From the IMG/VR virus record IMGVR_UViG_2799113255_000001, positions 1 through 64,000 of that record: a stretch of 64,000 bases of DNA; one strand, written 5' to 3'. A program made the translations under genes and the position numbers. Shown here one piece after another: positions 1 to 53,505 of the stretch. A model generated the notes under the pieces. It did not search any database. It worked only from the letters and a program-made list of their open reading frames with translations, and had not been told where the DNA came from. Every line of letters begins with the position of its first letter. The first letter of the stretch is position 1. Origin of the DNA: a virus. Lineage: Duplodnaviria; Caudoviricetes.

Positions 1-96
1 AAGCAGTGGCGGAATGTCGCGGCGAGCTGTTCGGTATCCGTAGATCCCTCTCCTATCTGCGCGAGGTGCAGTCATGACCGATCCAGCAGTAGAGGC
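1..96 (+). repeat. 96-bp exact direct repeat, copy 1
   Basis: Identical to 55123-55218; diverges at base 97. Confidence 0.97.
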
Positions 97-375
97 AGCC
101 TGACGCTCACATTAAGTCCCGTTTTGTGGCTGGCTGGACGGTGACCGAATGAGCCCAGCGAAAAGGATTGAGCCACAAGCCTAACCAGACCGCCCGCGAG
201 ACAGACCTACGGTCTGCTCTTAAGGGCATCGAGAGCGGTCTATGACCGTCTCTCCGCCCCCGATGGTCGCCGTGACCTCATCCCGCCGTGTTAGGCGTGG
301 CCTCCCGTCCGGTGGCGCACTCGGTTTGCGCCGGGGGCACCAAATCAAAGGTATGACAACAACATAAGGAGCGAC

Positions 376-651
376 ATGACAACGCTGTCGGTAGTCGATG
401 TTGAGAGCATCGTGGGGGACATGCCCGCGCAGGCATGTGAAATGCCAGACAACCAGATGAATCCTATTTGTAGTAGTGAAGCTGCATGGTTGGCACGCGT
501 CCCCATCAACCAAACCATGTGCAGTGTGCGGGTCCTCGCGTTCTGCGAATACCACATGACCCTAGTAGAAACCATCATCACCAACGACCCGATACCACAA
601 TGCTTCAAATGCGGCGACACTAGCGATAAGTTCCGTAAGGAACGGTTGTGA
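376..651 (+). CDS. Hypothetical protein with Cys pairs (possible Zn-binding)
   Basis: AGGAG RBS, CxxH and CxxC motifs, start of a coupled ORF run. Confidence 0.7.
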   Translation: MTTLSVVDVESIVGDMPAQACEMPDNQMNPICSSEAAWLARVPINQTMCSVRVLAFCEYHMTLVETIITNDPIPQCFKCGDTSDKFRKERL

Positions 652-875
652 CCACGTTCTACCGGCTGACGGTATCGAACGTCATCACCGGCCACGACAC
701 CACCGAATACCCGTCCAACTGGGACCAGGGTGTAGGTATGGCAGCCGCTTACGCGGCTGACAACTCGTATCGGATGGACATCAAACACCACGACGAGAAC
801 AAAACCACGTGGTGGTTCATCTGTCCGACAATGGGACTCTCCGGGTACGCGACGTTGGAAAGGGTATTCGAATGA
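648..875 (+). CDS. Hypothetical protein
   Basis: GTGA overlap with the upstream ORF. Confidence 0.65.
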   Translation: MTTFYRLTVSNVITGHDTTEYPSNWDQGVGMAAAYAADNSYRMDIKHHDENKTTWWFICPTMGLSGYATLERVFE

Positions 876-942
876 CGTTCATCGTGTACGTGTGCCTGAT
901 TGTCCCGGTAATCCTCACTATCACAGCATATTTGGAGGCTTG

Positions 943-1164
943 ATGAGTTACAGACCTGTGAACGAGATTGTCCAAGTAAATCAGATATCGGTGGGCGATT
1001 GGATCATAGATGATAACCGTCTACATCGTGTGGACCGTATGTCGTGGAACCGGTCACTTCTTTCGTACGAAGTTAAACTAAGTGGTCACACAAAGGCTGT
1101 AAGCATGTACGTGGATAAGCTGGTGGTTAAAGTATCCCTAGCTGTAGATATGAACGACCTGTGA
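943..1164 (+). CDS. Hypothetical protein
   Basis: GGAGG RBS before ATG; overlaps the next ORF. Confidence 0.6.
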   Translation: MSYRPVNEIVQVNQISVGDWIIDDNRLHRVDRMSWNRSLLSYEVKLSGHTKAVSMYVDKLVVKVSLAVDMNDL

Positions 1165-1490
1165 ACCTATTCACCGCTGCCGCAGTAGGTTTGGGCCTGG
1201 TTCTAGCGCCGATCGCCGCGCCTATAGCGGCGCACGCTATACCGATGGCCTGTGAACACCGTGGGGCGGACCACGTTGAAAGGCATGGTGGCACGGTCAA
1301 AGACCGTGAATACCACCTGGCACGCGATGAACGCGTGTCGTGTGAACCGGAGGACAAACACCCGCACCCGTCGGTAACACCCACGGCCCCAACGACATAC
1401 GTCCCGGTTCCGGTTCAGACCGAAGAAGATGAAGACGACGATGACCATCATCATTGGCACAGAAGGAACAAGTGGTGGAGAGATGATTGA
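1161..1490 (+). CDS. Secreted protein with acidic/His-rich C-terminus
   Basis: Hydrophobic signal peptide ending AHA; Pro/Thr linker; EEDEDDDDHHHWH tail. Confidence 0.75.
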   Translation: MNLFTAAAVGLGLVLAPIAAPIAAHAIPMACEHRGADHVERHGGTVKDREYHLARDERVSCEPEDKHPHPSVTPTAPTTYVPVPVQTEEDEDDDDHHHWHRRNKWWRDD

Positions 1491-1668
1491 AAACAATGAC
1501 TTCTGGGGTTGGTCTGACCTGGACCACAAACAGTTGATGTCCGACCTGGGTATCGGCGGAGACGCGATTACCGCTGCGTTGGAACAGGGTCTGGAACTCG
1601 GTAAGGGCTCACCAGGTGGGCTGACCGAGATTTGGAACATCAAGACCGTAGACGAGGAAGAGGATTGA
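1483..1668 (+). CDS. Small protein homologous to the tape-measure C-terminus
   Basis: GGAG RBS, overlaps upstream stop; 27/42 aa identical to TMP residues encoded at 30207-30332. Confidence 0.85.
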   Translation: MIENNDFWGWSDLDHKQLMSDLGIGGDAITAALEQGLELGKGSPGGLTEIWNIKTVDEEED

Positions 1669-1669
1669 C

Positions 1670-2185
1670 ATGACAACACAAGCAGAGAACGCGATCCGAG
1701 AGACGGCATGGCACTACCGGGAAAACGAATTCACAACCGGTGGGTTGACTTATGCGTTCGTACGTCCGATGCATGAGCGGGCCAACGACTACATCATGGT
1801 TAGGTACCCCGAGGGTGGACTAGGTATCGTCGCGGAGCGATGGGACAAGAGCCTGCGCCGATTCCGGTACAACATCGGCGGAGTCAACATGCTTAAGTCC
1901 GAGATCATTTCGCGGTTCGGACTTGAGCCGGTTGTGAACCCCTCGGCACAGGTGGTTCCGCTGCATACCGTGAAGGAACCATACGACCGGGTAATCGATA
2001 CGTTGGACCAGCTGGTCCGTAACCACGGCCTCAAGTTTCTTGTGACACAGGGCAAGTTGGCGAAGGCTGCGCAACTGACCGTACCCACGTTGCGAAAGTA
2101 CTTACGTCAGTTGGAGGCAGCCAACCACATTGAGGTAGAGGGTTGCTTACAAGGTACCTGGATCACGGTGAAGGACGCCTCGTGA
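1670..2185 (+). CDS. Protein with C-terminal winged-HTH
   Basis: TQGKLAKAAQLTVPTLRKYLRQLEAANHIEV HTH pattern. Confidence 0.7.
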   Translation: MTTQAENAIRETAWHYRENEFTTGGLTYAFVRPMHERANDYIMVRYPEGGLGIVAERWDKSLRRFRYNIGGVNMLKSEIISRFGLEPVVNPSAQVVPLHTVKEPYDRVIDTLDQLVRNHGLKFLVTQGKLAKAAQLTVPTLRKYLRQLEAANHIEVEGCLQGTWITVKDAS

Positions 2186-2793
2186 AGATCCCGAACAGCA
2201 TCGAAGACGCGGTACTCGACCTAAAAGGGCTGGGAGAGTTGGTCACAGCGTCCGAGTGGAAGCGGTCAGCTATCGTGTGGGCGTTCACCGAAGAGGTGGG
2301 TCGGGGCAAGAGCAAATGCTCACAATTGAGCATTTCAGAGTTCGCAGCACTAGAGGTCATCGGGCTTCAGTCCCGCAACACCGTTGCGAAGTACCGCAAG
2401 GCTTGGAAGCTCGCTATCGACAACGGGTTTGCGACTGACGTCAAACCCGGCGACCTGATCGACCTACCCGACGTCGAGTGGCAAGAGTACTTCAATCCAC
2501 CGCTACCCAAGATGGACAAACCTTCTGTACCCGCTAAGCGTCCGGGCACGGCTCTAGCCAAGTGGGACGAAGAGTCTTGGGACTCAGAGAAGATCAACTC
2601 GTCTGATCGGTTGGTTCGTATGTCCGACGTCATGTGGGACACGTTGGACGGCGTGAACAACGAGAAGCTAGTACGTGTGGCCCAGTCGATCATCGACTTT
2701 GTGGGCGATGAGAACAAGGCTCGTGGCATCGCTCGGATGATGCACTCTGTGATTGAGTTTGTCTCCGAGTACAAGTCGGCCACGCACGCGTGA
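2182..2793 (+). CDS. Hypothetical protein
   Basis: GTGA overlap; long ORF on the coding strand. Confidence 0.7.
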   Translation: MKIPNSIEDAVLDLKGLGELVTASEWKRSAIVWAFTEEVGRGKSKCSQLSISEFAALEVIGLQSRNTVAKYRKAWKLAIDNGFATDVKPGDLIDLPDVEWQEYFNPPLPKMDKPSVPAKRPGTALAKWDEESWDSEKINSSDRLVRMSDVMWDTLDGVNNEKLVRVAQSIIDFVGDENKARGIARMMHSVIEFVSEYKSATHA

Positions 2794-2820
2794 CCAACTA
2801 ATCAAACAAAGAGGTTTGGT

Positions 2821-3021
2821 ATGTCCACTACTACGTCCGTCGAATACGACGACATGATGCTCCCCGAAGCCATCAAATTGGAGACGCGGATTTACGACGA
2901 TCTGGAAGACTTGGACGGGGACCAATCACCGATCGCCGTCAACAACCGGTGCTTCTTGCAAACGTTGTTGACACAGGTTCAGGAGCGAATCGGGCACCTT
3001 ACAACACTTCTCACGTTCTAG
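2821..3021 (+). CDS. Hypothetical protein
   Basis: GAGG RBS, ATG start. Confidence 0.6.
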   Translation: MSTTTSVEYDDMMLPEAIKLETRIYDDLEDLDGDQSPIAVNNRCFLQTLLTQVQERIGHLTTLLTF

Positions 3022-3294
3022 GTAGGGCAAAACTACTCTATCTGGTTGATGAATCCATGAGAAACCGGACATACGTACTGGTCAGAGCGGTAATTGGCTC
3101 ACCGACGTATGTAAGATAACGACTTGGTAACGAGTGACATACGCGTCAAATCTTTGTGAACACTTGTTGTAATCTGTGTCACAGGACGGGGACTCCTGGT
3201 ACGTCACAGCCCGACGAAAGGGGCCAGCCTTGCTATGCATTGACTTGACAGGTAATCTTGTTGCACTTGACAAGAGACCCGAACGGAGAAGCAG

Positions 3295-3762
3295 ATGGAC
3301 CGAACTATTACGCCCCAGTTGACTAAACCGATAATAGAACAACTGATGAACCAGGGTATGAACTTCACGGAGATCGGTAACGAGTGGGGTATGACCCGAT
3401 CTGGGGTTTCGTGGATCTACAACAACTACGGGGGTAAAACCCTACGTAAGATGATCAAGGAAGTCATACCTTTCAAGGTACCCAATAAATTCAACCGGGC
3501 TTACGCGTTGCAACGTTTGCGTGAGCACGCCGAGTACATCATCGTCGGTAACGTAGACAGGTACACCGACAAGCGCAGGAACAAACTGCGGTCGTTCCAC
3601 AAGAAGATGGTAGACGAAGTGGTGGAGTACAACCCGGAGACAGGGTTTACCTATCGGACTAGAGAGCCACGTGACAACGGTCTAATGATTCGCGTGAACG
3701 AACACACCAACATAACTGAATACGGAGAAGAGCTATGGAAACTACCCACACGCGAACTTTAG
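3295..3762 (+). CDS. Immunity repressor (L5 gp71-like)
   Basis: N-terminal HTH (GMNFTEIGNEWGMTRSGVSW..YGG), RLREHAEY and VVEYNP motifs; preceded by a 270-bp intergenic region with TTGACA hexamers. Confidence 0.88.
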   Translation: MDRTITPQLTKPIIEQLMNQGMNFTEIGNEWGMTRSGVSWIYNNYGGKTLRKMIKEVIPFKVPNKFNRAYALQRLREHAEYIIVGNVDRYTDKRRNKLRSFHKKMVDEVVEYNPETGFTYRTREPRDNGLMIRVNEHTNITEYGEELWKLPTREL

Positions 3763-3777
3763 AAAGCTGGTCCCGTC

Positions 3778-4044
3778 GTGCTGCAAGCCGCCCCGCATAC
3801 TCAGACCCTCCAGATTGATGCTCTGCCTTGGCTTATCGCTAACACCATAAAAATACACGGCAATCCGTGCCTTATAGTGCATCGTAGTAACAAGTTGTCG
3901 GATGATGACGCACTCTATCAACCTGTTGTCGAGTTCCTTGCGTCACATCCACATACGGTCCAGTGCGGCCCGGATGAACGGTTTGACTTCAACTTCAAAG
4001 GCGGTATGGGGACTGTGACGACGTACAGACTGGCGGTGCCGTAG
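3778..4044 (+). CDS. Hypothetical protein
   Basis: Fills the gap between repressor and nuclease, as in cluster A. Confidence 0.55.
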   Translation: MLQAAPHTQTLQIDALPWLIANTIKIHGNPCLIVHRSNKLSDDDALYQPVVEFLASHPHTVQCGPDERFDFNFKGGMGTVTTYRLAVP

Positions 4045-4835
4045 TGAAACTCAGTGTCTCCCAGTACAAACAGTACGAGCGGTGTCCTATGGCGTGGTAC
4101 CTATCTCGGGTTGAGAAGGCGTGGCAGCGACCCGCCGCGTGGTTACCGCAGGGGTCGGCGGTGCACGAAGCGGGGGAGGCGTGGGAGCGATCCGGTAGGA
4201 CGATGACCCTGGAAGAGATGCAACAGGTCTACACCGAGTCGTACGACAACCACGTCAATTCGTACTGTGACGTAACACCGAACTTGGAGTGGTGGTTCTG
4301 GTCCGGGCCGTATAACGGCGAAGCCGACATCAATCGACGGTACGACCTCGGACTACAGCAGTGTGGCCGGATGTTGGACTGGTACGGGAAGCACCCGGAC
4401 GAGGTTGTGTGGATCGCCCCGGATGGAACACCAGGTATCGAGCTTGGGTTCGACATCGACCTAGACGGTATCGAGATCCGTGGGTTCATCGACCTTGTGG
4501 TCCAGGTGTTCAATGACACCAACGACGGGGACTACGTGATAGTCCGGGACAACAAGACCGGCAACAAACCGGGCGACGACTTCCAGCTGGGGGTCTACGC
4601 GGTGGCGTTGGGTGAGCAGTTCGAAACCTTCTCGTCTACCGGTGACTACTGGATGGGTAGGACCGGAAAGCCCACGAAGCCATACGATCTCACCGACTGG
4701 ACCCGAGAGACGGTGCGGGACAAGTTCGTAGAGCTACAGGACAACATCAACGCGGGGAACTTCCCGCCCAACCCAGAACCCGATCGCTGTCGGTTCTGCG
4801 ATGTTTCGTACTCATGCCAATACAGTCAGGCTTAG
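4044..4835 (+). CDS. Cas4/RecB-like exonuclease
   Basis: SVSQ..CP, RGFID, DNKTG, QLGVY and C-terminal CRFCD..C. Confidence 0.92.
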   Translation: MKLSVSQYKQYERCPMAWYLSRVEKAWQRPAAWLPQGSAVHEAGEAWERSGRTMTLEEMQQVYTESYDNHVNSYCDVTPNLEWWFWSGPYNGEADINRRYDLGLQQCGRMLDWYGKHPDEVVWIAPDGTPGIELGFDIDLDGIEIRGFIDLVVQVFNDTNDGDYVIVRDNKTGNKPGDDFQLGVYAVALGEQFETFSSTGDYWMGRTGKPTKPYDLTDWTRETVRDKFVELQDNINAGNFPPNPEPDRCRFCDVSYSCQYSQA

Positions 4836-4837
4836 TG

Positions 4838-4851
4838 CTTGACATACGACC
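4838..4851 (+). promoter_or_regulatory. Stoperator CTTGACATACGRCC (other copies: 6556, 7500, 9480, 11223, 13471, 20813, 52419, 52720, 52892, 53311 on +; 33081 on -; near-matches at 52184 + and 52448 -)
   Basis: Asymmetric 14-mer seen 12 times, oriented with transcription, mostly at gene boundaries; reverse complement ends in TGTCAAG like the L5 stoperator. Confidence 0.93.
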
Positions 4852-4861
4852 AGGAGGTTCG

Positions 4862-5200
4862 ATGGGTGGCCCAATAAAGATCGGCCCCCGGTCAGTGACT
4901 CGGGACGGTAAAGAGTACCCGTTAGAGCCGTGGCAGATGGCTAAAGTCACACGGGCGTATGAAGAGTTGACTGAAGACGGCTGGCCCCCAACGGAGGCCG
5001 AAATGTCTGAGTTCAATAGATTCGTGACGTTGATGACTCGGTTGGACGACACCTGGCGGCTACTAGATCGGGTGATCGCTACAGACGTCCACCCCACGAT
5101 AGACGGTGAAGACTGCTACGTCTTTATAAAAAAGGGTGGGGATCGGCCTACAGATCGGTGGTCGATTACGTACAAAAGGGTTTCCGCCTTCTGGGGTTAG
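4862..5200 (+). CDS. Hypothetical protein
   Basis: AGGAGG RBS directly after a stoperator. Confidence 0.7.
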   Translation: MGGPIKIGPRSVTRDGKEYPLEPWQMAKVTRAYEELTEDGWPPTEAEMSEFNRFVTLMTRLDDTWRLLDRVIATDVHPTIDGEDCYVFIKKGGDRPTDRWSITYKRVSAFWG

Positions 5201-5212
5201 AGAGGATAAGTT

Positions 5213-5533
5213 ATGAAGACCCTACTTACGGCTGTAATCGCTGTGCTGTCATTGGGTTTGGCCGTACCGGCTGCCGCTGACCCGTACCACGATCTGTACC
5301 ACCCTGACTACATCCGGGGCTGGTGCCCCGGTGGTGGTACCAACGAGGGTGTAGGTGTGTCGTCTTCCAACCTGACAGGTTGGTGTAACGGCGTTCAGTA
5401 CCCGGACGGGACGTTCTGGCACCAGACGGCGTACACGTCGTTCGGACGGTTCCGTATCGACACCGCGTGCAAGACGCGGAACGGGATTCTGTTGTCACCC
5501 GCGCCATCTGGCGGATGCGGAGGTGAGTGGTGA
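5213..5533 (+). CDS. Secreted Cys-containing protein
   Basis: Signal peptide ending AAA-DP; four Cys. Confidence 0.8.
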   Translation: MKTLLTAVIAVLSLGLAVPAAADPYHDLYHPDYIRGWCPGGGTNEGVGVSSSNLTGWCNGVQYPDGTFWHQTAYTSFGRFRIDTACKTRNGILLSPAPSGGCGGEW

Positions 5534-5703
5534 GTAAATACAAGCTGCACTATTCTGATATCGAATACGGTGCGAAGTTCCAAGACAGTCGTGGTTATGT
5601 CTACATCAAGACCCAGATGGGTCCAGCGTGTGTACACGAACCGGGGGACGTCCGAACGGACTGTGACGCTCCTTGGGAGCACGGACCGTTCCGCCGATGC
5701 TGA
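5530..5703 (+). CDS. 57-aa protein (GPF module), absent from the ORF track
   Basis: GTGA overlap; translates MSKYKLHYSDIEYG...HGPFRRC. Confidence 0.65.
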   Translation: MSKYKLHYSDIEYGAKFQDSRGYVYIKTQMGPACVHEPGDVRTDCDAPWEHGPFRRC

Positions 5704-6497
5704 CACTTAGACAGGCGTTGTATCAGAAGAACGACTCGGGTGTACCGCTGCCAACTGTGTGGACGTCGTTGGAGCGTAACGGTATCAAGTTCATGCGGGG
5801 ACAACTGGTGTTGGTATGTGCCGCACCGGGTATCGGTAAGTCGGCGTTCGTACTCACTCAAGCGCTCAAGTCGGGTGTACCCACGTTCTATTTCTCGGCT
5901 GACTCCGACGAGTTCATACAGACCACTCGGTCTATGTCGATCCTGCAAGGCTGGACGATGGACAAGTCCATATACGTCTACGAGAAGAACAAGGACGAGG
6001 GTGCTCCAGTGGTGTCTAACACCGAAGTTCAGTTTGACTTCAATCCGAGTCCAACACTGGACGAGATCGAATCGGCCATAGCGTCGACGTTGGAGACCAT
6101 GGACGACTTTCCGCACATGATCGTGGTAGACAACATCACAGACGTCTTGTCGGGATTCGCGGGTAACGAAGATGACCCGTTCGCCGGTTTGGAACCCCTG
6201 ATGGGGTACCTACACGGTATGGCCCGCAAGACGGGTGCCTGTGTGGTGGGTCTGCACCACGTGACGGGCGAGTACAACGACGGAACCAAGCCAATTCCGT
6301 TGAAAGGGGTCAAGAACCAGATCGGACGTGTTCCCGAGATGATCTTGACGTTGCACCGGATTCCGTCTGACCACGGCCCGGACACGTTGAACGTCTCGGC
6401 GGTGAAGAACCGATCTGGCCGGGGTTTCCCGTCGGGTCGTTCGTACGTCAGCCTTCAGTTCGACGGAAAAACTATGGATATCACGGATTTTCAGTAG
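5697..6497 (+). CDS. DnaB/RecA-like helicase
   Basis: Walker A AAPGIGKS, Walker B IVVDN, KNRSG arginine finger. Confidence 0.92.
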   Translation: MLTLRQALYQKNDSGVPLPTVWTSLERNGIKFMRGQLVLVCAAPGIGKSAFVLTQALKSGVPTFYFSADSDEFIQTTRSMSILQGWTMDKSIYVYEKNKDEGAPVVSNTEVQFDFNPSPTLDEIESAIASTLETMDDFPHMIVVDNITDVLSGFAGNEDDPFAGLEPLMGYLHGMARKTGACVVGLHHVTGEYNDGTKPIPLKGVKNQIGRVPEMILTLHRIPSDHGPDTLNVSAVKNRSGRGFPSGRSYVSLQFDGKTMDITDFQ

Positions 6498-6590
6498 GTG
6501 TCGTGCTAGCCATCAAAGATGGCGGCGCTAGGCGCGAGCTTTCGCTCGTGCCGTACTTGACATACGACCCAATAGTGAGAGGAGCCGCCG

Positions 6591-6995
6591 ATGTGCGGAC
6601 AGTGTGACGCATCGGATGACCTGATGGAGCCGTACGACGAATGGCAGCTAAAAGGTCTAGTCGACGCGTACGAGAAGGTGGAGACGGCCCCGGTAGATTA
6701 CGAAACCGCCAAGCGGCTGTTAGGCCACGCGCGGGAACTGCGTTCCTGGTTCAACGCCGAAAGCTACTGGCGTAACAATATCTTCCGCTGGCTTGAAGCT
6801 GAGAAACAGTGGCAGATACACCAGGATCTTATCAATAACGATCCGGTGTACAAGGCGGCAGAACGCGGCTGGCTAGCTATGCGTGAGTTGTGCCCGCGTT
6901 TGGATGGGGTCGACACCTTCGCTCAAATGGGGACCCTACTTACGAATCGATACGCCGTATTCGCCAAAGCCGTTCTAGACCAACAGGAGAACTAA
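6591..6995 (+). CDS. Hypothetical protein
   Basis: GAGGAG RBS after a stoperator. Confidence 0.7.
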   Translation: MCGQCDASDDLMEPYDEWQLKGLVDAYEKVETAPVDYETAKRLLGHARELRSWFNAESYWRNNIFRWLEAEKQWQIHQDLINNDPVYKAAERGWLAMRELCPRLDGVDTFAQMGTLLTNRYAVFAKAVLDQQEN

Positions 6996-7646
6996 CCATG
7001 ACCACCACTATTACCCCGATGGCACTCGCTAAGCCCAGCTTGGTAAGGCAGCGTATCGGTTTCGGTCTTATCGACCGGGTACCTACGACGTGGACCCACA
7101 AGAGGGTAGACCCAGACAGTCCGGACCCCAAGCGTCCGGTGATCATCGAGACCAAGATGACCGGTTGGGCGTACAAGAACCCGTTGGCGGGCAACGTGTC
7201 TCAGCTGAATGTGGACCGGTTTATCGAGAGGGTGGGATTTTGAACATAGAAGAAGATTTAGCTAAAGCCTTGTGGGATGTAGTTCCGTACGATCGGTTCT
7301 ACGAGTGGGAAGAGCACCCCAACGAAGAAATTCGGGAACACTATCGGGACCGGGCTCGACGCCTGCTCCGGTGGTTCCGTATCGAACGGAAGCCCTGATG
7401 AACCTGTCTATCAACGTGTTTAGCGTCCGTTTTGTTGATCTGACGCTAGCCGTCGAAGACGGCTACGCTACCGGCGCAGCGCGTTTCGCGCGTGCGCTAC
7501 TTGACATACGGCCCACCGAGGCGGTGGAAGTGGACCGGATCGCCCGAAGGGGTGTTCGTGCGCTGTCCCGTTGGTGGACGGAAAGGATGTTTTGATGCCT
7601 GACTATTTTTACTGGATAGCGTTGGCCTGGTCTGGGGGGTTCGTCG

Positions 7647-8219
7647 TTGGCGGAACGGTTCGGGGGTGGATCGACCGTGGGTAGCAAGCTGGAGACAACT
7701 GAAGCGCAGCGGAGAAATGGTTGGCTAGGGGGTGAAAACCAAAATGATGGGGGTCGCCAACGCGAAACTAGGTGGTTGACACCACCGGAATTGTTTAAAC
7801 CTCTTGGGACGTTCGATCTAGACCCCTGTGGCGCGCCAGGACATCAAATTGCCGATACCACCTACCTGTTGGAAGAGGGTAACGACGGGTTGACCGAACC
7901 ATGGTTCGGTCGCGTCTGGCTAAATCCTCCGTATGGACCAAGCCAGAAACCATTCATGCGACGAATGGTTGATCACCATAACGGCACCGCGTTGATATTC
8001 GCCCGGACTGAAACAAAACTATTCAGCGAAACGGTGTGGGAAGCTGCAACTGCCGTTCTCTTCCTAAAGGGCCGCGTTACGTTTCTTGATAGTAGCGGAA
8101 AGCCCGCCAATGCCAATTCCGGGGCACCTTCATGCCTTGTCGCTTACGGGCCTGGCGATGCGGGAGCACTCTGTTCGAGTGGCCTGCCCGGATTCTATAT
8201 AAGGCTAAGGGAAGCGTGA
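7647..8219 (+). CDS. Phage DNA N6-adenine methyltransferase
   Basis: WLTPP..FDLDPC and VWLNPPYG motifs; start uncertain. Confidence 0.9.
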   Translation: MAERFGGGSTVGSKLETTEAQRRNGWLGGENQNDGGRQRETRWLTPPELFKPLGTFDLDPCGAPGHQIADTTYLLEEGNDGLTEPWFGRVWLNPPYGPSQKPFMRRMVDHHNGTALIFARTETKLFSETVWEAATAVLFLKGRVTFLDSSGKPANANSGAPSCLVAYGPGDAGALCSSGLPGFYIRLREA

Positions 8220-8842
8220 TGGCAGAACTTCATGTGAACAAAGCGCAGCGGAAAGCGATGGGTGAGGCCGCTGATGAGTGGCAGGGCCGGGTGGACACCA
8301 CCGATGAGTACATAGACCGGATCATCGCTGCCGCTAACAGCATCCCCGAGGGGCCACCTGTTGGCACCATCGCACGACGACCAGACGGGGTGGTGCTGGC
8401 GCATAAAGACGGGGACGAGCCATTCAAATGCCCTTGCTGCAAGCTAGTGTTCGGGGCTGGTACTGACCGTATTGAGGTATGTGACCTATGCGTGGCATCC
8501 CACCCGATTACCACCCGTGATGCATCACAGACACAGCAGGAACCGGGCGAAATCGACTGCCGGAACTGCGATGGCCGCAAGTGTATGGGTTGCGTGTTCC
8601 GAGAACATCCCCACGATTGTGCTGATGACTGCCCGGAGTGCTGCGAGCCTCGTACACCCCGTGTCGTTGACCGTCTAGGGGTAGACGAGCAGGGATCGCG
8701 TTGGCGGAACAGGGTAGATACCGAGTTTTGGTTTCAGGACAAATACTGGAACTTCCGAACTAAGGATGGGTGCACTTCATGGTTCGCCGCTGGGTACGAA
8801 CCAAAGATGTGCATATTCACCGAGGTGTTTGATGTGGGCTGA
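8219..8842 (+). CDS. Cys-rich hypothetical protein
   Basis: Multiple CxxC pairs; ATG overlaps the MTase stop. Confidence 0.7.
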   Translation: MAELHVNKAQRKAMGEAADEWQGRVDTTDEYIDRIIAAANSIPEGPPVGTIARRPDGVVLAHKDGDEPFKCPCCKLVFGAGTDRIEVCDLCVASHPITTRDASQTQQEPGEIDCRNCDGRKCMGCVFREHPHDCADDCPECCEPRTPRVVDRLGVDEQGSRWRNRVDTEFWFQDKYWNFRTKDGCTSWFAAGYEPKMCIFTEVFDVG

Positions 8843-9044
8843 CATCGGTTTAGCCGCAACGGTTGCCGGTGGATACCTACTAGCGGTGCTGGTGATCTGC
8901 GGGTACGGGTGTTAGTACAGGTTCTCGGTATAGACGGTGAAGAACTAGCCCGGTTTGACACAGAGGATTGGTACATCCGTATTTACCATGACCGGGGCGA
9001 GGGGTTACAACCCACCGCCGCCGTAAAGTTGAAGTCCGACCCTA

Positions 9045-9515
9045 ATGGCTAAACCCCGAATCTGTGTGGACTGCCGGTCGGAAGGCATCACGACTAAACG
9101 ACCGGCACCCAATCCGGGGCCGCGTTGTGCTACGCACCACCGGGCTAGGCGGGCCAAGACCCGTTCTACCGCTTGGGAATCCCGGTTGATGAAGAACTTC
9201 GGATTGACACCGGAAGACTACTGGAAGCTGTATGAATACCAAAACGGTAGGTGCTATCTGTGTCAGAGAGCGTCGGGTCGTACGAAGCGGCTAGCGGTTG
9301 ATCACGACCATTCAACCGGTTTGGTTCGGGGGCTTCTTTGTTCACACGACAACCTGAAAGTCATTGGCCACAGCCGGGATTCGGTGGAGTTCTTCCAACG
9401 AGGTATCCAGTACCTCACTAACCCACCGGCGTTCGACGTGATCGGCAAGGTAGTCGCACCTATCGAGTCAGGCCAAGGACTTGACATACGACCAGAAACG
9501 AAAGAAGGAACATGA
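9045..9515 (+). CDS. Endonuclease VII
   Basis: QNGRCYLC..LAVDHDH.TGLVRGLLC. Confidence 0.92.
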   Translation: MAKPRICVDCRSEGITTKRPAPNPGPRCATHHRARRAKTRSTAWESRLMKNFGLTPEDYWKLYEYQNGRCYLCQRASGRTKRLAVDHDHSTGLVRGLLCSHDNLKVIGHSRDSVEFFQRGIQYLTNPPAFDVIGKVVAPIESGQGLDIRPETKEGT

Positions 9516-9916
9516 CAACGTATCCATTATGGGCTGACATCCCCTCTGGTGTCACGGTTTACGTCCCTAACCACGAGCTACTAGCGATCAAGCTGGAAAA
9601 CGCCACGCTGGTGTCCATTACCGAAAACAAGGGGCGAGCGGGGTGGATTCAAACTACCGGTCGTCTCAAGGGTCCGTTCGAGGACGTGTATGGAGAGCTG
9701 GTGTCCCTGGAGGAGTGCATCGTTCCGAAACCCGCTCCGAGGCGGTGGGACTCGCTGGTTGATGTTCCAAGAGACGTCCGGGTGCGAGATCGAGAACACG
9801 ATAAGTGGAAGTATCGAAAGGGTAAGTGGCACTTCCGAGAGAATGGAAAGTGGTTCTCAGTCTACAACGCACAGTTCTACGATACGTACGGACCATTCAC
9901 GGAGATCGTGAAGTGA
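9512..9916 (+). CDS. Hypothetical protein with two GPF modules
   Basis: ATGA overlap; internal duplication ending GPFED / GPFTE. Confidence 0.7.
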   Translation: MTTYPLWADIPSGVTVYVPNHELLAIKLENATLVSITENKGRAGWIQTTGRLKGPFEDVYGELVSLEECIVPKPAPRRWDSLVDVPRDVRVRDREHDKWKYRKGKWHFRENGKWFSVYNAQFYDTYGPFTEIVK

Positions 9917-10321
9917 ATGTCCCTGATAACCGCCGTCATCCACCGGTACCACCCGGAATGGGTTCCGCCGCCCGATAAGTCGCTTTGGTGCCGTTGTTCG
10001 TGCCCGTTTCACGGTGACGAAACACCATCAGCCGCAGTCAACTACCGCGTAAACGCCTACAACTGTATGGCTTGTGGGGTTAAGGGTGATGCAGTGGCAC
10101 TTATCAAGAAGCAGGAAGGAGTGACCCATCGAGAGGCAGTCACGATCGCACAGACTCTTCTTGAAGGAGGCGACGGAGAAGTACCACCGATCGTTCAAAG
10201 ACAGCAATGCCGAAGAGTATTTGGCGAGTCGGGATCTAACAGTGCCGGCGATAGTGGACGAACCGGAAGACAAAGCGTACTTCCGAATCGGGTACGTAGA
10301 CGACCCTTTACCGGGGCATGA
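9917..10321 (+). CDS. DNA primase, Zn-binding (CHC2) part
   Basis: CPFHGDETPS..CMAC. Confidence 0.88.
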   Translation: MSLITAVIHRYHPEWVPPPDKSLWCRCSCPFHGDETPSAAVNYRVNAYNCMACGVKGDAVALIKKQEGVTHREAVTIAQTLLEGGDGEVPPIVQRQQCRRVFGESGSNSAGDSGRTGRQSVLPNRVRRRPFTGA

Positions 10322-10796
10322 GATGTACCGGGGGATGCTGGCCCTGCCATACTTGCGTAAGTCGTACGAGTTCGGTTGGGGCGTAGCGTCTATCCGGTTC
10401 CGGTGTATCGAAGAACACGAACACCAGGGCCACGGGAAGTACATGACGGTCGCGGGTGATCGGCCTCGGCTGTACAACACGTTGGCGTTGTGGAAGCCGG
10501 TAGACACAGTAGCGATCACTGAGGGTGAGCTAGACGCCATCGCCGCCGAGTCGTGTGGTACCAGAGCGGTCGGGGTTCCGGGTGCTACTTCGTGGCAACG
10601 GTATTTTCGTGAACCGTTCCTCGGGTATCAGACGGTGTACATCCTCGCGGACGGGGACGAAGCCGGGATGCAGTTCGCCAACACCGTGGCGTCGGATCTA
10701 CCGAACGCACGGATTGTGCCGATGCCGAAAGGCTCGGACGTTAACGACTTCGTTCTGAGGGAGGGACGAGAAGCATTGAAAGACAGGTTGAAATGA
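10128..10796 (+). CDS. DNA primase, TOPRIM part (start uncertain: ATC 10128 or TTG 10161)
   Basis: ITEGELDA and LADGDEAG motifs; long overlap with the upstream ORF as in L5. Confidence 0.9.
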   Translation: MERQSRSHRLFLKEATEKYHRSFKDSNAEEYLASRDLTVPAIVDEPEDKAYFRIGYVDDPLPGHEMYRGMLALPYLRKSYEFGWGVASIRFRCIEEHEHQGHGKYMTVAGDRPRLYNTLALWKPVDTVAITEGELDAIAAESCGTRAVGVPGATSWQRYFREPFLGYQTVYILADGDEAGMQFANTVASDLPNARIVPMPKGSDVNDFVLREGREALKDRLK

Positions 10797-10965
10797 TGGA
10801 CTACGACTTAGGGTTGGAGGTACCCCCGAAGAGTCGGGAGAACACGTACCGACAAGAAGCGCTGGAGCAGTGGTTATCGGGCCTGCGCGATAACGTAGTT
10901 TTTTGGGGTGCTCGTAGCCGGAAGTTCTTGCGGATGGAACCTATCGACGGAAACTTCGTGGTCGG

Positions 10966-13416: not shown

Positions 13417-13575
13417 GCGCTATGAACGGAGTTCATGAGCTGGAGGCCCCTGCCTTTGACAGGGTCCGTACTTGACATACGACCCGACGGACCGGTTGGT
13501 CGGAGATGGTTGGGTGCGCCTGAAGGTTGGAAGCCAAAGGGCTACAGATGAATACCTTCTCCACCCGACTCGACC

Positions 13576-16939: not shown

Positions 16940-16943
16940 CGGT

Positions 16944-27016: not shown

Positions 27017-28762
27017 TTACAGAACGCCGAGGTCACCCAGCGACGAGTTAATGTCGCGGATCATCTCGAACGCCTTGAGCATCGGATCTTGTGGTTCGCG
27101 GTATCCGACTTCGATCTCCCAACCCTTAGGGCCGTCTGCACCCCATGAGTAGCTGATCTTGGATACACGTTCGACAAATATCGTGTACGGGTCAGGGAAA
27201 CCGAGAACCGTTGTACCGATACGGTCTCCGAGCCAGAAGTGACCGTAGCCGGGTGCCCCGATGTAGTACGGGGCTGCGTCCGAGATCTTCAGCGTGTGCG
27301 ACGTGTGAGCCCTGGTTGCCCAGATCTTCGCCCGTATCGCCATGATCGCGGAGAGCGTGAACGCTTTGTCCGCGCCGTCTGCCCAGCCCTCGTAGTAGTG
27401 GAAGTCGCCTAGCCCGGTGATGGCGTTCTCCAACCCCGGAAGGGGCAGCGAGAGTTCCATAGCCCGTAGGGTCGGGATCTCCATGAACGCCAGGATCGTG
27501 TCCGAATAGATCGGGTTGGCGATAGCGTCGATGGCACCACCGATGGGCGGGAGCTGAACTTCGATGGCAGCCGAAATATGGGCTGCCAGTAGGTCTCCAC
27601 CCATCTGGATAACCGCTGAGATCGCCTCGTTGACGCCAGGCATTGACTGCCCACCGGTTAGGAACGACGTGTCGGTAGCCTCGTAGTACTTGAACTCCGA
27701 GGACTTGATACCGGTTAGCGGACCCTCTTGGTAGACGACGTGGGGTGCCTTCGGGTTGGTCCCGAGGAACCACGGCACGTAGTACTCTCCGGGGTAAGTC
27801 GGGTCACCGTGGTAGACCTCAACACCTTCGGTCGTCCCGTCCGATGCGATGTTGACGATCGCTCGGACCAGACCGACGAGTATCGAACCACCGAAAGCGG
27901 TTTCGGTTCCCCAGCCAGACTTATCCTCGATGTCCCAGACCAGGCAGCCGTTACGCAGCGGGAAGGTGGTCTCGTTGAGAATGCCACCGTACTTGTGCGC
28001 GAACGGGTGTGGGTCTTCACCTTTCAGGTACCGGCGTGGAACCCACGACAGCTGAGCGTCTTCCATCACCCTCTTGGCCACGTCGAACATCGACTTGAAC
28101 CGGGAGAAGACGATCGCCAGGTTGGAGTTGTCGTCTAGAAGATCCAACGGAGAACAGATGTTCCGCCAGTTCGACGGTAGGAACGACAGACCCATCCACT
28201 CGGTTGGATCTAGTGGATTGTCAGGCAGCGTGAGCCACGACGTCTCCAACCGGAATAGGTTGACGAACAACGTGACTAGCAAGCACCACTTCGCGGGTCC
28301 GAAGATCACCCACATCTTCGGGAACTGGAACTCGGGCCGCAGGAACGGGTTGGCCCAGCAGTACATGTGCTTGAGTTCTTCGATGTCGTGAAGGAAGGTG
28401 ATCTCTAGGTAGCAGTCACCGGACTCTTCACGAACAACGCGGTAGGACTCCATCCGTCCCGACCACCGAGCACCTTGCTTGTCGAAGGTGACGTGGACGT
28501 TGCGCTTGGCACGTCCCCGGAAGTCCATTACCCATTTGGCTAGGTAGTGGTCTAGGGACAGTTGCAAAGACGCTGTGCCGGTGTCGTTGTCGATGAACTG
28601 GAAATCGCCCTTACGCTCCCCAGCGACTACGCCACGGAGGTTGAAGTCACCGTCCCATAGACGGGTAAGGACGGGCTTTAGACGTTGCTTCTCACGCCAG
28701 CGGCGGGACTCCATGACCCGGTCCCACAGGAATTGCGCATCCTCTTTGGATCGGATCGACAT
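27017..28762 (-). CDS. Minor tail protein (L5 gp28-like baseplate hub)
   Basis: [17 protein letters not shown] and [10 protein letters not shown] motifs; second gene after TMP. Confidence 0.9.
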
Positions 28763-28765: not shown

Positions 28766-30127
28766 CTATTCCAATCCCCAAGGGCGAGACCAAGGACGGG
28801 GTACGCGAAGCTGGACCATTTGGCCGGGCTTCGCACCCGACACGGTGATCTCGAACGTGGCGGTTTTCGTCCACGGTGGAATCGAGTTGCGGAAGCGGAC
28901 ACCGTTCATCCGTTGCCACACAGGCGAACCGTTGAGTGCTGTGACCTGTTCGACCCGAGGGTCGGTATCGATCAGGCAATCCTCAGCACCAGCGGTGTAC
29001 CCGGTGGTGGACTCGTACACCTGGACATAAGCCGTTGTCGGACTGAACGAAGACGAACCGGTCATCAACTTCACCGGGGTACCGGCGAGTGATCCCGTGA
29101 ACGCCACGGTGTACGGACGGGTGCCAACCAGGAACGCAGGGCCACCGTCTACCACTACGTTTCCTGCACCTATAGCCGGTAGGGCCTCCAGGGCTGCTTG
29201 AACCGTTGCAGCAGAAGCGGTACGAGATAGGTTCACGGTGGACTGACCGTTGTAGGTCAGCTTCCACGTTCCCGACGTCGGCTTGCCGACGATGTTGACC
29301 ACTTGCACAGACGCGGTACGCAGTCCACCGATAAGAGACGGTAGGCGCAACCTACGGTTAGCGAACTCCGGGTCATCGAACGAGTAGTCCGGGATAGTCC
29401 AGATAGTCGCGGGAGACGTGGGGGCACCCAGCCACGGAAGAAACGGGATGTACGGCTCCGACGGAGGAAGCTCTGAACCGGGTACAGCCCACTTGGGGAA
29501 TACCTCTTGGTCTGTGGGGTTTAGGCCGTGTTGTGTATCGCCGTTGGCGATCTCGATGTACAGCGTCTCCTTAGGGAGTTCTGCCAGCGGCCACGGGAAC
29601 GGCAGATCCATAAGGATCGGGTTGAACGTCGTGTCCTTCTGACACTCGGCTTCCCACGTAGCATCCTCGCCGTACCAGAACGGGTCGCCAGCGATGACCG
29701 TCATCTTGACGAGGTTCATGGTGTTGCCGTGAGGGTCGGTCCGAAGATCTACTTCCATCGCCTCGCCCAGTCGGCACTTCAGCGTCCGACGACCGGAATC
29801 CTCGGTAGTCACATGGATGTAAGTGTCTTTGTTGAAGGCCCACATCTTGCGCCACTCGGAGTCCCGTGACTGCCACGAGTTCTCGCCGTGCTCGGCGTCG
29901 TTGAGAATCCAAATACCGAACGTCATGTCTCGGCGCAAGATTCGATCGTTGAGGTAACGAGCGCCGGGGTAGTTCCCCGGCTCCTCGTATACAACCTTCA
30001 CGGGCGGGTCGAAAAACCCTTGGATGTCGGTAGCAAGGTGCATGCCCCGGTCGCCCTCTTGGGGACCGGCTATGGTGGCCCACTGGCCGTTGCAACCTTC
30101 AATCTCTATGACGGTTTCAGCGATCAA
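28766..30127 (-). CDS. Distal tail protein with inserted accessory domain
   Basis: First gene after TMP; ends PRPWSRPWGLE. Confidence 0.88.
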   Translation of the reverse strand: MIAETVIEIEGCNGQWATIAGPQEGDRGMHLATDIQGFFDPPVKVVYEEPGNYPGARYLNDRILRRDMTFGIWILNDAEHGENSWQSRDSEWRKMWAFNKDTYIHVTTEDSGRRTLKCRLGEAMEVDLRTDPHGNTMNLVKMTVIAGDPFWYGEDATWEAECQKDTTFNPILMDLPFPWPLAELPKETLYIEIANGDTQHGLNPTDQEVFPKWAVPGSELPPSEPYIPFLPWLGAPTSPATIWTIPDYSFDDPEFANRRLRLPSLIGGLRTASVQVVNIVGKPTSGTWKLTYNGQSTVNLSRTASAATVQAALEALPAIGAGNVVVDGGPAFLVGTRPYTVAFTGSLAGTPVKLMTGSSSFSPTTAYVQVYESTTGYTAGAEDCLIDTDPRVEQVTALNGSPVWQRMNGVRFRNSIPPWTKTATFEITVSGAKPGQMVQLRVPRPWSRPWGLE

Positions 30128-30137: not shown

Positions 30138-32213
30138 CTATCCGCTCTTGCCGACGACACCTAGTGCCTGCTTGTTCAGCTGGTTGTTCTTGACGGCGAT
30201 CGTGTCGTCTACGTTGGACGTGTTGAAGATCTGCGTTAGACCGTTGCCCAACATCTGTTTTCCGATCTGAAGACCCTGATCGAGGGCAGCGGTTATAGCC
30301 CCTCCGCCGATTCCCAGGTCGTCCTTCAGCTGACTGAAGTTGGCTTCTCCGAACCCGATACCCGCGTCCATACCCTTTTGGGTTAGGCCAGGAAGGTCGA
30401 TTCCGAACTGGTCCTTAACGCTTTTGGCGATGTCCGCAGCGACGTTGGTGATCTTTTCCTTCTGTGACTCCAGACCATCAGCGAAACCCTGACCGGTGAA
30501 CTGGCCTACTTCGTGCATTACCCTTGAAGGGGAATGAATTCCGAGAAAACCAGTGACAGCGTTCTTGACTGAGCTAGCGAGTTCCTGGGCTTTGGCGATA
30601 GCCGAACCGATCAGAGATCCAATGCCGTTTATGAACCCCTGAACCAGTTGGGCTCCCGCCTGGAATCCTGCTTGGAACAGACCGGCCAGGGCGGCGGTGA
30701 TTCGCCCAGGCCATGTAGTGACCTCACCGACGATCTGAAATCCACCGTTTATGACGACGTTCAGGACACCTGTTAAAGCCCCACTAACCGTTTGAACCAC
30801 ACCGTTCCACGCCGACTGCGCGATAGCGGGGATGCTGCTCCACGCAGTGGCCAGCTGAGTGGGAATCTGGGACAACTCCGTGATTATCGATGCCGTGAGA
30901 CTCCCGATAATCTGTTGTAGCCCAGTAAACATCCCCGACAACATGTCGGCGGGACTCATGCTGGTTATCCGGTCCCACCGATTTAGGAAATCCGATACCG
31001 CGTTGGCTGCGATGACCAGCAGACCGACTAGCTTCTCGATCAAAGTTACGATGGCCTGTAGTTCCTTCTTGAACCCTTCGACCTTCTTGGGGTCGGAGAA
31101 GAAGTCCAGTACGCGGCCAGCGATGTTGACTAGTCCGCTACCCAGTATGTTCAGGGTGTCCCCGAGGCCCTTCAAAGCGACATCGAACTTGGACACCCCG
31201 TCTGGCCCCGCCGCCGTGAAGTCCTTGACCCACTTACTGAACGAGGCACCGGTATCCGAGAACCATTTACCGATATCGGGGAGCTTGTTAGAGAACCCGT
31301 TGATCAGATCAAGGAACCCTTGGGTGAAGTCCCGTATACCAGGTGCCGCTGCCGTCAGGCCACTAGCGATGTTGCGGATCGTCTGATCGAGTTTGGCAAG
31401 GTTGGCGGGATTGGTCAGCACGTCCGCGAACGACTTAGCCATATCAGCCAAACCCTGTGTGACGCTGGGCAATGCCGCCTTCAGCGTCGGAAATATGTCT
31501 TTCAGCTTCTCGAAGACAGGCGTGAACTGTTCTTCGACCTTCGCTGACATCGTGTCCCGAAGTTCCTTGAACGGCTTCTCCAGTACCCCGGCTGCTTTCT
31601 TCAGTCCATCTAGACCGAGAACCAACGCACCTATTGGCGCTACCACAGCCGTAATGAGTCCGGGGAGCGCCAGCAGACCCGTGGTTAGGGCACCTAGAAG
31701 ACCTACGATTACCGGTGATAGGAGCGAAATAGCCGAAGCTATCAACGCGTAACCTGTTGCGTTGATGCCGAATCCGAACGAAGGGGGCTCGATATTGGAC
31801 AGCCGGTTCTTCAGTTTCGACATCATCGTTGCGAACCGCATACGGAACGTCTTGACATCCGGTTCTACGGGTACTTTGACAGCGCCCATCTTTTGCAGAC
31901 GTTGCCGAAGCATGTAGTCGAACTTCGGGTCTAACTTGAGCTTGATCGTTTCGTCGGCTGTGTGAAAACCGTTCTTACGCAGGATCTCGCTGTTCTTGTC
32001 GACATCGACCTTGACCTTGGCGTTGTCCAGGGCCTTAGTGGCGGCACTTACCTTTTGTCGAAAGCCGCTCACGTCCGGGTCGACGTTGATCTTGGCCTCT
32101 ATGCCTTTGGTAATTGCCTCAAGTTGTCGCTTTAGATCTCGGCGGAACCCGTCTGTGTCGGGGACGACCCGGATGGAGATTCGACCGACTTCACGGCCAC
32201 CGGCTCCTGCCAT
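30138..32213 (-). CDS. Tape measure protein
   Basis: EVGRISIRVVPD start, helical Ala/Gly-rich repeats, follows the chaperones. Confidence 0.93.
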   Translation of the reverse strand: MAGAGGREVGRISIRVVPDTDGFRRDLKRQLEAITKGIEAKINVDPDVSGFRQKVSAATKALDNAKVKVDVDKNSEILRKNGFHTADETIKLKLDPKFDYMLRQRLQKMGAVKVPVEPDVKTFRMRFATMMSKLKNRLSNIEPPSFGFGINATGYALIASAISLLSPVIVGLLGALTTGLLALPGLITAVVAPIGALVLGLDGLKKAAGVLEKPFKELRDTMSAKVEEQFTPVFEKLKDIFPTLKAALPSVTQGLADMAKSFADVLTNPANLAKLDQTIRNIASGLTAAAPGIRDFTQGFLDLINGFSNKLPDIGKWFSDTGASFSKWVKDFTAAGPDGVSKFDVALKGLGDTLNILGSGLVNIAGRVLDFFSDPKKVEGFKKELQAIVTLIEKLVGLLVIAANAVSDFLNRWDRITSMSPADMLSGMFTGLQQIIGSLTASIITELSQIPTQLATAWSSIPAIAQSAWNGVVQTVSGALTGVLNVVINGGFQIVGEVTTWPGRITAALAGLFQAGFQAGAQLVQGFINGIGSLIGSAIAKAQELASSVKNAVTGFLGIHSPSRVMHEVGQFTGQGFADGLESQKEKITNVAADIAKSVKDQFGIDLPGLTQKGMDAGIGFGEANFSQLKDDLGIGGGAITAALDQGLQIGKQMLGNGLTQIFNTSNVDDTIAVKNNQLNKQALGVVGKSG

Positions 32214-52167: not shown

Positions 52168-52419
52168 TTATGATATTCCAGGACTTTACATACGACCCGA
52201 ATGGGTGTTCGACTTCTAAACCCGTACACGATGGCTCCTCCGGATTACCGCCCGATCCTGGGGGCCGGGGGAGGGGTGTCCCCCCTGGGGTGCCGGGTGG
52301 GGGCAGCTGCGCTGCCGACCGTCCCATGCCATGCACGGTGGTGTGCACCGTGCTACCCACCCACGCTTACGTATGTGCATGCGTGTGTGCGTGGTGTCCA
52401 CATTCGTATGCACGCACCC

Positions 52420-52447
52420 TTGACATACGGCCTGTGTGTAGTAGAGT
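52420..52447 (+). promoter_or_regulatory. SigA promoter TTGACA-N16-TAGAGT with two operators
   Basis: -35 inside a stoperator; inverted near-match site at 52448-52461 covers the ATG. Confidence 0.75.
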
Positions 52448-52453
52448 GGTCGT

Positions 52454-52663
52454 ATGTCAAACACATGGAAGCAACTAGCCCTCGCTACACTCACCGTTGG
52501 TGCGTTCTGGGTAGGACTGCCCACTGCAGTAGAAGCAACAGCACACGCAGACCAATTGCCCGTATGCCAATACGAGGACGGCAATACGGACGGGAAACCG
52601 TGCAACTGGACCGACCCTGACACAGGCGCGGTGTACTACGTGACATCGGAGAACTACCGATAA
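52454..52663 (+). CDS. Small secreted protein, probably leaderless
   Basis: Signal peptide ending AHA-D, two Cys; own promoter and terminator. Confidence 0.85.
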   Translation: MSNTWKQLALATLTVGAFWVGLPTAVEATAHADQLPVCQYEDGNTDGKPCNWTDPDTGAVYYVTSENYR

Positions 52664-52682
52664 CCGGCAGCGCCCACCAAGA

Positions 52683-52705
52683 GCCCCCGCTACGGCGGGG
52701 GTTTT
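52683..52705 (+). terminator. Intrinsic terminator
   Basis: CCCCCGC-TACG-GCGGGGG-TTTT. Confidence 0.9.
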
Positions 52706-52720
52706 CTTTGTGCGTGGGAC

Positions 52721-52749
52721 TTGACATACGACCGTCGATGAGTTAGATT
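52721..52749 (+). promoter_or_regulatory. Early promoter TTGACA-N17-TAGATT
   Basis: Canonical spacing; -35 within an operator. Confidence 0.85.
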
Positions 52750-52892
52750 GTGGATACAACTTCAGAGCGGGGCAGAGCTAGGGGAACGCAGTTCCCCGAC
52801 GCCAAGAGCCAAAACCACTTATGTGGTGTTAGCGAGTCAAGTGAACCCATACGCCAGCGGGTGAGCGAGCGCATAGAGCCAAGCAACACGGC

Positions 52893-52921
52893 TTGACATA
52901 CGGCCCACAATCTGATAGTTT
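52893..52921 (+). promoter_or_regulatory. Early promoter TTGACA-N17-TAGTTT (Pleft-like)
   Basis: Canonical spacing; -35 within an operator. Confidence 0.85.
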
Positions 52922-52927
52922 ACAAAC

Positions 52928-53297
52928 ACAACTGAATAGCAAGGACCGGCCCCCTAGTGGGATGTCGCAGCCGTCGCAAACGGTGTGGTCCACAACAACC
53001 CGGTGAGAATCGGACGCTGCTACAGGCGACGCCAAGCGCACGCAGCACTACATACAGACAGCACGAGAGATCGCCAGCGAGCGTGGTTAGTAGATCGCGA
53101 TGACCTGGTGTTCACAAGCGAGTAGCGAGAGCTTGTGATGAAACGGCGTGCTAAAGGTTGGCCTACCTACGGCTGGTCTGGGTCTCAGACCTAAGAGACA
53201 AAACTACAGCCCGCAAGGGCAGTCACGGCAGGTTCGCCCTCTCGATATGACCGTAGAGGTTTGGTTTGACTCCAAACGTGGCACGCAAGACCTTTTT
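52928..53297 (+). ncRNA. Candidate structured ncRNA/long leader
   Basis: No + strand ORF in the track; many stems, GCAA tetraloop, tRNA-like 3' module. Confidence 0.6.
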
Positions 53298-53505
53298 ATT
53301 TACCCACGTACTTGACATACGACCCGAACGAAATTCGGGGCGTCCAAGCGCCGTGATCTTCGATCACAAGCGCACGGCCTAAGGAGACAACGATGTCCAC
53401 CAACCAGGTTCGTACCACCACCTACGCGTACATATACGGACGGGTGTACGTGTCACGCGGTAGTTCGTTCGTGCGGGTACGATAACACGATTAGGAGTCG
53501 TAGAA

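Follow-up and report, generated by a model that had tools for sequence, protein, structure and literature searches.

By sequence comparison, the 61-aa protein encoded by a small early gene of a Mycobacterium abscessus prophage is an old, maintained paralog of a segment near the C-terminus of the phage's own tape measure protein (TMP), kept under purifying selection. The function that we favour for it, with a probability of roughly 40%, is that of a soluble competitive mimic of this TMP tip segment. The evolutionary facts are well supported, and the function is what we infer from them. Unless another locus is named, coordinates refer to the window, i.e. the whole stretch of 64,000 nucleotides that was analysed, with which a virus record of 96.8 kb begins. 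The small gene, its parts and the tail genes with which it is compared are the following:

1483..1668, + strand: small early gene, paralog of the TMP tip segment (61 aa, net charge -11; BLASTP, phrog_305)
1546..1653, + strand: core module, LGIGG ... VD, 36 codons, common to the TMP and all family members (alignments)
1654..1665, + strand: acidic tail EEED, which replaces the basic last 22 residues of the TMP (sequence, charge)
30138..32213, - strand: TMP, 691 aa (phrog_305, E 1e-189; Bxb1 TMP, PDB 9D93 chain Na, E 4e-118)
30204..30356, - strand: stretch of the TMP (residues 620-670) of which the small gene holds a copy (BLASTP, alignment)
30141..30206, - strand: last 22 TMP residues (net +2), missing from the small gene (alignment, charge)
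28766..30127, - strand: distal tail or tail-tip cage protein, Bxb1 gp23-like (PDB 9D93 chain Ma, E 1e-145)
27017..28762, - strand: baseplate hub, Bxb1 gp25-like and Douge gp18-like (PDB 9D93 chain Oa, E 2e-271; Douge structure paper)

The similarity between the small gene and the TMP is far above chance. In a BLASTP comparison with the TMP of the same phage, residues 9-58 of the 61-aa protein align with TMP residues 620-670, with 28 identities over 51 positions, 73% positives and one gap (E 7e-14), and the protein alone matches the TMP profile phrog_305 (E 9e-8; residues 15-58 against profile positions 865-906 of 1001). The 27 identities over 42 residues counted in an earlier, sequence-only reading of this DNA are exact and correspond to TMP residues 628-669 (nt 30207-30332). 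Over the 36-codon core, the two genes share 65% nucleotide and 67% amino-acid identity. After the shared VD, the TMP has 22 further residues and the small ORF has EEED, in agreement with the acidic end and the loss of the last ~21 TMP residues described in that reading; its location of the gene in the early arm, ~29 kb away, also holds, with the tail genes at 28.7 kb from the small gene. The length of 61 aa, the early-arm position and the lack of the terminal ~22 residues identify the gene as a fragment paralog rather than as a TMP: it has no full-length ruler architecture and does not lie between the genes of the tail chaperones and that of the distal tail protein. Among the Pfam and PADLOC-DB profiles, no family is matched by either the 61-aa protein or its longer relatives.

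The reading frame of the 61-aa protein extends from an ATG at 1483 to a TGA at 1666-1668, and the annotations of its orthologs in GenBank and RefSeq begin at the equivalent start; longer in-frame starts at ATG 1429 or 1441 (79 or 75 aa, respectively) may be used instead. The gene had been credited with a ribosome binding site of its own. A GGAG is indeed present, but it lies merely 2 nt ahead of the ATG, and the start of the small gene overlaps the stop of the preceding gene by 8 nt (ATGATTGA), which makes translational coupling the likelier route. The preceding gene is:

1161..1490, + strand: upstream gene, 109 aa, DUF7199, with a signal-peptide-like N-terminus (profile, sequence)

The C-terminus of this DUF7199 protein is acidic and His-rich. 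In PHROGs its family carries the label 'recombination directionality factor', which is doubtful for a protein that looks secreted.

TMPs are the first phage proteins to enter the cell, and their ends gate genome delivery. In the window, the TMP gene is found directly upstream of the gene encoding the gp23-like cage protein, followed by that of the gp25-like hub, and the C-terminus of the Bxb1 TMP aligns with the window TMP (E 1e-14 for the stretch in question). Solved structures of siphophage tails show the last ~27-42 residues of the TMP as a trimer in the lumen of the distal tail and the hub (Douge; NF5), the baseplate hub being the usual seat of TMP C-termini (Douge structure paper). Judged by its position, the copied segment (between 62 and 24 residues before the end of the TMP) would overlap with the upper half of the ordered region, and the missing 22 residues would constitute the deepest part of the hub-seated end.

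Two other TMP sequences deviate from the common pattern. The record IMGVR_UViG_2799113144_000003 (L029) encodes a TMP with a variant tip motif (LGMGG..., with QNFF for QIFN), together with a mini-protein that has the standard TMP version. Outside the window, P0016 from M. abscessus is a chimeric 'phage tail protein' of 274 aa, of which residues 1-62 match the start of a 415-422-aa protein, whose window homolog is probably the ORF at 35560-36807, and the rest corresponds to the last 212 residues of a MabJ TMP. P0016 probably represents the scar of a deletion in a prophage that has decayed.

Selection was evaluated over the 36-codon core in eight allele pairs by means of a Fisher test, with comparison of all six frames. 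Allele pairs show a pS of 0.50-0.64 versus a pN of 0.05-0.10 (Fisher p 6.5e-6 to 4e-10), and the pair that includes allele L012 shows a pN of 0.18 (Fisher p 1e-5). Among alleles, the dN/dS of the module ranges from 0.03 to 0.16, i.e. not near 1; the purifying signal is sharpest in the annotated frame of the six, and the constraint is as tight as that on the same segment of the TMP. In comparisons of the small genes with the TMPs, dS has reached saturation at a dN of about 0.3 (for the 36 codons of the window core, dN is 0.30 and dS about 1.5), which points to an old duplication and not to a recent DNA copy, and bears out the earlier claim that the codon differences reflect selection on the protein. 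The possibility that the gene is a non-functional remnant of illegitimate recombination, or a mis-called ORF, would be in line with its short length, its lack of a Pfam family and its dispensability. Such a reading is effectively refuted by two findings: alleles whose synonymous divergence is saturated show strong purifying selection in the annotated frame, and there are 11 clusters at 90% identity in which the end of the reading frame is conserved.

The closeness of the module to the TMP sequence differs among alleles. Nearly all mini-proteins retain the residues that vary little or not at all in the alignment of TMPs and mini-proteins (LGIG, the upstream Q..D, the downstream GG and QGL, and the D of VD), and most alleles have, in addition, conserved residues of their own that are unlike the TMP (GSPGG, and a W that replaces F). 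In allele L012, a block of 12 residues (GLTQIFNTSNVD) is identical to the standard TMP despite synonymous differences in 6 of the 12 codons, from which it follows that selection holds at least L012 to the TMP sequence; a near-identical TMP block is also present in another cluster. The earlier description of the protein as a mimic of the phage's own TMP is correct in that it is a paralog of the TMP segment, but the own TMP is not tracked: the TMP of the L012 phage differs in this very block, and a search for co-variation of the mini-protein with the TMP of its own phage was negative. For the L012 block, a recent event of gene conversion from the TMP was rejected, as half of its codons are synonymously different.

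Regarding the origin of the DNA, the region from 1 to about 55.1 kb matches the MabJ prophages of M. abscessus (matched relatives: prophiT49-3, prophiBWHA-1, prophiT46-3, prophiGD24-3 and prophiGD43A-4), whose organisation resembles that of cluster A mycobacteriophages. The prophage ends of the MabJ records are joined in the window near 22184, in an attP-like arrangement. The MabJ unit is bracketed by a 105-bp repeat of 97% identity (1-105 and 55123-55227), which is shared with a second, different prophage type that occupies the DNA from 54 to 64 kb and continues past it. The record is therefore either a cointegrate or a tandem array, or else a chimera created by the assembly. An origin of the small gene and the TMP in different phages, brought together on a chimeric contig, was rejected for practical purposes, since both genes lie inside one ~55.1-kb MabJ unit and the complete relatives (n = 5) have one TMP and one module gene each. 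The whole record contains a single TMP of the MabJ type. The minus-strand arm of the MabJ unit also harbours a tRNA-Ser gene (anticodon tga; 44226-44311, - strand), ~12 kb past the start of the TMP gene. For prophiT49-3 and prophiBWHA-1, strong attP PCR signals have been reported in cultures and filtered supernatants (PMC9934374), which indicates their spontaneous excision and release.

The module is restricted to a narrow group of prophages. A tblastn search of 50,697 phage records found it nowhere outside MabJ prophages and TMPs. Word-indexed and exhaustive HMMER searches of 5.8 and 1.84 billion proteins yielded 11 clusters at 90% identity, all those with a named source being from M. abscessus, and apart from these clusters only TMPs were recovered in the two protein sets. 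No relative was found in the GTDB species-representative genomes, and the ESM Atlas gave no usable match. Within the group, the module gene is present in about half of the related prophages: it was found in 6 of the 13 IMG/VR contigs with a 96-100% identical hub and in 2 of the 5 GenBank MabJ records. The gene is therefore dispensable, and in prophiGD24-3 the same slot is occupied by two unrelated small genes.

All family members share the C-terminal module and end 1-7 residues past VD (or its equivalent in one divergent allele), the residues after VD being almost all acidic; the truncation point is thus fixed, and the last 22 basic TMP residues are missing throughout. The N-termini, by contrast, are mosaic, comprising short stand-alone forms and fusions to at least three unrelated domains, none of which matches a family in Pfam. 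The short forms (59-69 aa) are of two kinds and four variants, that of the window included, and their existence implies that the module with a brief leader is sufficient to be kept. In the longer forms, found in prophiT49-3, prophiBWHA-1 and others, the module constitutes the C-terminus of proteins of 98-159 aa. Gene 43 of prophiT49-3 (L001:3746-4177) encodes a module protein of 143 aa, residues 1-89 of which correspond, with 86.5% identity, to the separate gene 44 of prophiBWHA-1 (L002:2229-2498), so the prophiT49-3 protein is a fusion of an early gene with the TMP-like module. Another architecture, of 105-106 aa, occurs in prophiBWHA-1 and relatives, and a further one has 98-112 aa. The search for other stand-alone TMP-tip paralogs was thus productive, and the term 'stand-alone' used in the sequence-only reading applies to the short forms but not as a general label.

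This mosaicism is the basis for reading the module as a targeting or co-assembly tag, which would dock variable N-terminal domains onto the TMP trimer or the lumen of the tail tip, for delivery with the DNA or for tip assembly, with the short form as a minimal or regulatory version. One conserved C-terminal module with at least four different N-termini, among them the gp43 N-domain that is a gene in its own right in prophiBWHA-1, is what such a tag would look like. Nevertheless, four stand-alone variants have no cargo domain, the gene sits in the early and not in the late arm, only about half of the relatives carry it although their tail-tip proteins are near-identical, and mosaic fusions are common by-products of phage recombination, for which reasons a tag seems rather improbable.

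The genomic context of the small gene is that of an early lytic operon close to the immunity repressor, and comprises the following features:

1670..2793, + strand: two inserted genes, of 171 aa and about 216 aa (comparison with relatives)
2821..3021, + strand: conserved 66-aa gene, ahead of the repressor in relatives (comparison)
3295..3762, + strand: immunity repressor, 155 aa, cluster-A type (phrog_357, E 3e-39; annotated as such in relatives)
52184..53324, strand not assigned: six clustered operator/stoperator consensus sites, probable Pleft region (consensus match)

In the window, as in prophiT49-3 and prophiBWHA-1, the module gene is located in the early right arm, ahead of the 66-aa gene and the repressor. 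The gene pair at 1670-2793, which sits between the small gene and the 66-aa gene, is not found at this position in those two prophages; the first gene of the pair has a weak Crp-like HTH match (E 0.001). The consensus bound by the MabJ prophage repressor, CTTGACATACGACC, has been published (PMC9934374), and 14 copies of it occur in comparison with 0.5 expected by chance. They are distributed over 4838-20826 (+ strand), 33081-33094 (- strand) and 52184-53324, and those of the early arm are oriented with transcription. The cluster at 52184-53324 is the probable Pleft early-promoter region driving the operon of the small gene, which lies between this putative Pleft region and the repressor, downstream of the former. 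A search of 1-4200 revealed no sigma-70-like promoter. According to the cluster A paradigm, the small gene would be active early in the lytic cycle and shut off in lysogens; its location downstream of the operator sites and the lack of a promoter of its own argue against lysogenic expression. Regarding transcripts, an RNA contig set from a tick metagenome covers only 1111-1349 and 3437-3659, with 1483-1668 outside, and three RNA runs with the same species label contain no reads of the prophage at all.

The chemistry of the mini-proteins differs from that of the TMP. Short forms have a net charge of -9 to -12 and a pI of about 4, in comparison with a net charge of -3 for the homologous TMP stretch and a pI of 9.2 for the whole TMP. 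The 61-aa protein has a GRAVY of -0.47, and inspection of its N-terminus revealed neither a hydrophobic stretch nor an export signal. The AF2 monomer model of the mini-protein consists of two helices on either side of a glycine hinge, at low confidence (pLDDT 52), and the model of the last 130 TMP residues (pLDDT 47) gave no Foldseek match in the PDB. Owing to this low confidence, the monomer models lend no structural support to mimicry; low confidence would fit a segment that folds only in a complex, and proves nothing.

The same properties have to be weighed for a module that has been neofunctionalised, in which case the TMP-derived helix-hinge-helix would serve as a scaffold for binding a non-tail partner, e.g. 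a host protein, or as a mimic of nucleic acid or charge. The strongly acidic character, the early-operon position typical of host-takeover genes and the family-specific residues, which hardly vary among most alleles even though their synonymous sites are saturated, are all compatible with a new partner. Against this, the TMP-invariant residues have been kept, L012 has been held identical to the TMP over 12 residues, with a near-identical block in another cluster, and no member deviates from the common truncation point. On balance, a new function away from the tail appears unlikely.

The conservation of the TMP-invariant residues, the fixed truncation point and the reversal of charge make competitive mimicry the simplest reading, and a copy that is real and strongly conserved probably mimics the tip segment. 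An old partial duplication brought TMP residues about 620-670 into the early right arm and gave rise to a soluble, strongly acidic 61-aa protein, which would make the same contacts as the TMP segment, either with the homologous helices of the TMP trimer or with the lumen of the distal tail and hub. The mimic would bind without completing the terminal docking. Predicted to be made from the early lytic operon and lacking any signal for export, the protein would work inside the cytoplasm of an already infected cell or on the inner side of its membrane, which favours an action on the genome entry of later relatives or on the phage's own spent channel. The favoured role is either to interfere with the TMP-dependent genome delivery of related phages that arrive later or to cap the spent TMP channel of the phage itself.

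Mimicry also gains from the fact that TMP C-termini are known targets of exclusion, in part by electrostatic means (Ltp; HK97 gp15, NormanBulbieJr gp45). Several points count against it: the family-specific residues unlike the TMP could mean a new partner, and the fusions to unrelated N-terminal domains fit a targeting tag equally well; for a cytoplasmic protein to meet an incoming TMP, the tip of the latter would have to cross the membrane; the mimic does not include the TMP part that is deepest in the hub in solved structures; and the gene can be dispensed with by about half of the relatives. A more general version of competitive mimicry, in which the capture of a TMP tip beside the lysis-lysogeny switch is an undescribed strategy at large and the present family its best-sampled example, is doubtful. 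There, the early acidic protein would behave as a 'poison subunit' that pairs with the homologous helices of TMP trimers, its acidic tail neutralising the basic TMP ends, so as to cap the DNA-entry channel and exclude later relatives, and elsewhere the module could act as a portable tag by which other domains reach the TMP.

Two other roles had been proposed in the sequence-only reading. The first was a dominant-negative effect on the tails of competing phages, which is unlikely: with a hub that is 96-100% identical in 13 related prophages, the phage's own tails would suffer equally. The second was an anti-defence decoy, i.e. a mimic that sequesters a sensor or blocker, encoded by the host or by a prophage, which recognises the TMP tip segment. 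Exclusion proteins encoded by phages are documented to target TMPs, also in mycobacteriophages, M. abscessus strains often contain several prophages, and a mimic without the terminal 22 residues might bind without activation, all of which would suit a decoy. Yet the gene matches no defence family, and the defence profile search of its neighbours gave a single weak match (E 0.003, ORF 1670-2185). The known TMP blockers, moreover, are secreted or membrane-anchored and act before phage gene expression, so a cytoplasmic early protein would come too late to pre-empt them, and we know of no TMP-sensing defence in M. abscessus. The decoy is accordingly given little credence here.

A selected, soluble copy of the TMP end among the early genes points to an undescribed form of regulation or sabotage of tail-tip or DNA-entry contacts from inside the cell. 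M. abscessus is a species for which phage therapy is under development, and a prophage factor that alters which phages infect it would be of practical relevance. The module could also serve as a handle to map the interactions of the TMP tip. In the literature, no description was found of a TMP-tip paralog as a separate early gene, nor of TMP decoys or mimics, and the paper on the MabJ prophages (PMC9934374) does not mention the tape measure.

In comparison with known proteins, the mini-protein resembles the C-terminal tip of the Bxb1 TMP (PDB 9D93 chain Na), with which it shares the run of motifs around LGIGG. It differs from cluster-A-type TMPs in its size (61 aa versus 691-823 aa), its position in the early arm and its strongly acidic character, and it has neither the last 22 basic residues nor any of the upstream TMP regions. 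Fruitloop gp52, made by a mycobacteriophage early in lytic growth, acts through Wag31 to block heterotypic superinfection. Like gp52, the mini-protein would be a small early-lytic mycobacteriophage product with a proposed role in exclusion, whereas gp52 has another sequence and a host target and was not copied from a virion protein. Under the favoured reading, the small gene would share with Ltp of TP-J34, HK97 gp15 and NormanBulbieJr gp45 the targeting of TMP-dependent genome entry, for which the mechanism proposed in the case of Ltp is the encounter of an acidic surface with the TMP C-terminus. These three proteins are secreted or membrane-bound, unlike the 61-aa protein, which has no export signal, and HK97 gp15 and Ltp are expressed from the prophage, whereas the small gene belongs to an early operon that is presumably repressed in lysogens. 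Finally, none of the three has been described as derived from a TMP, which is precisely the origin of the 61-aa protein.
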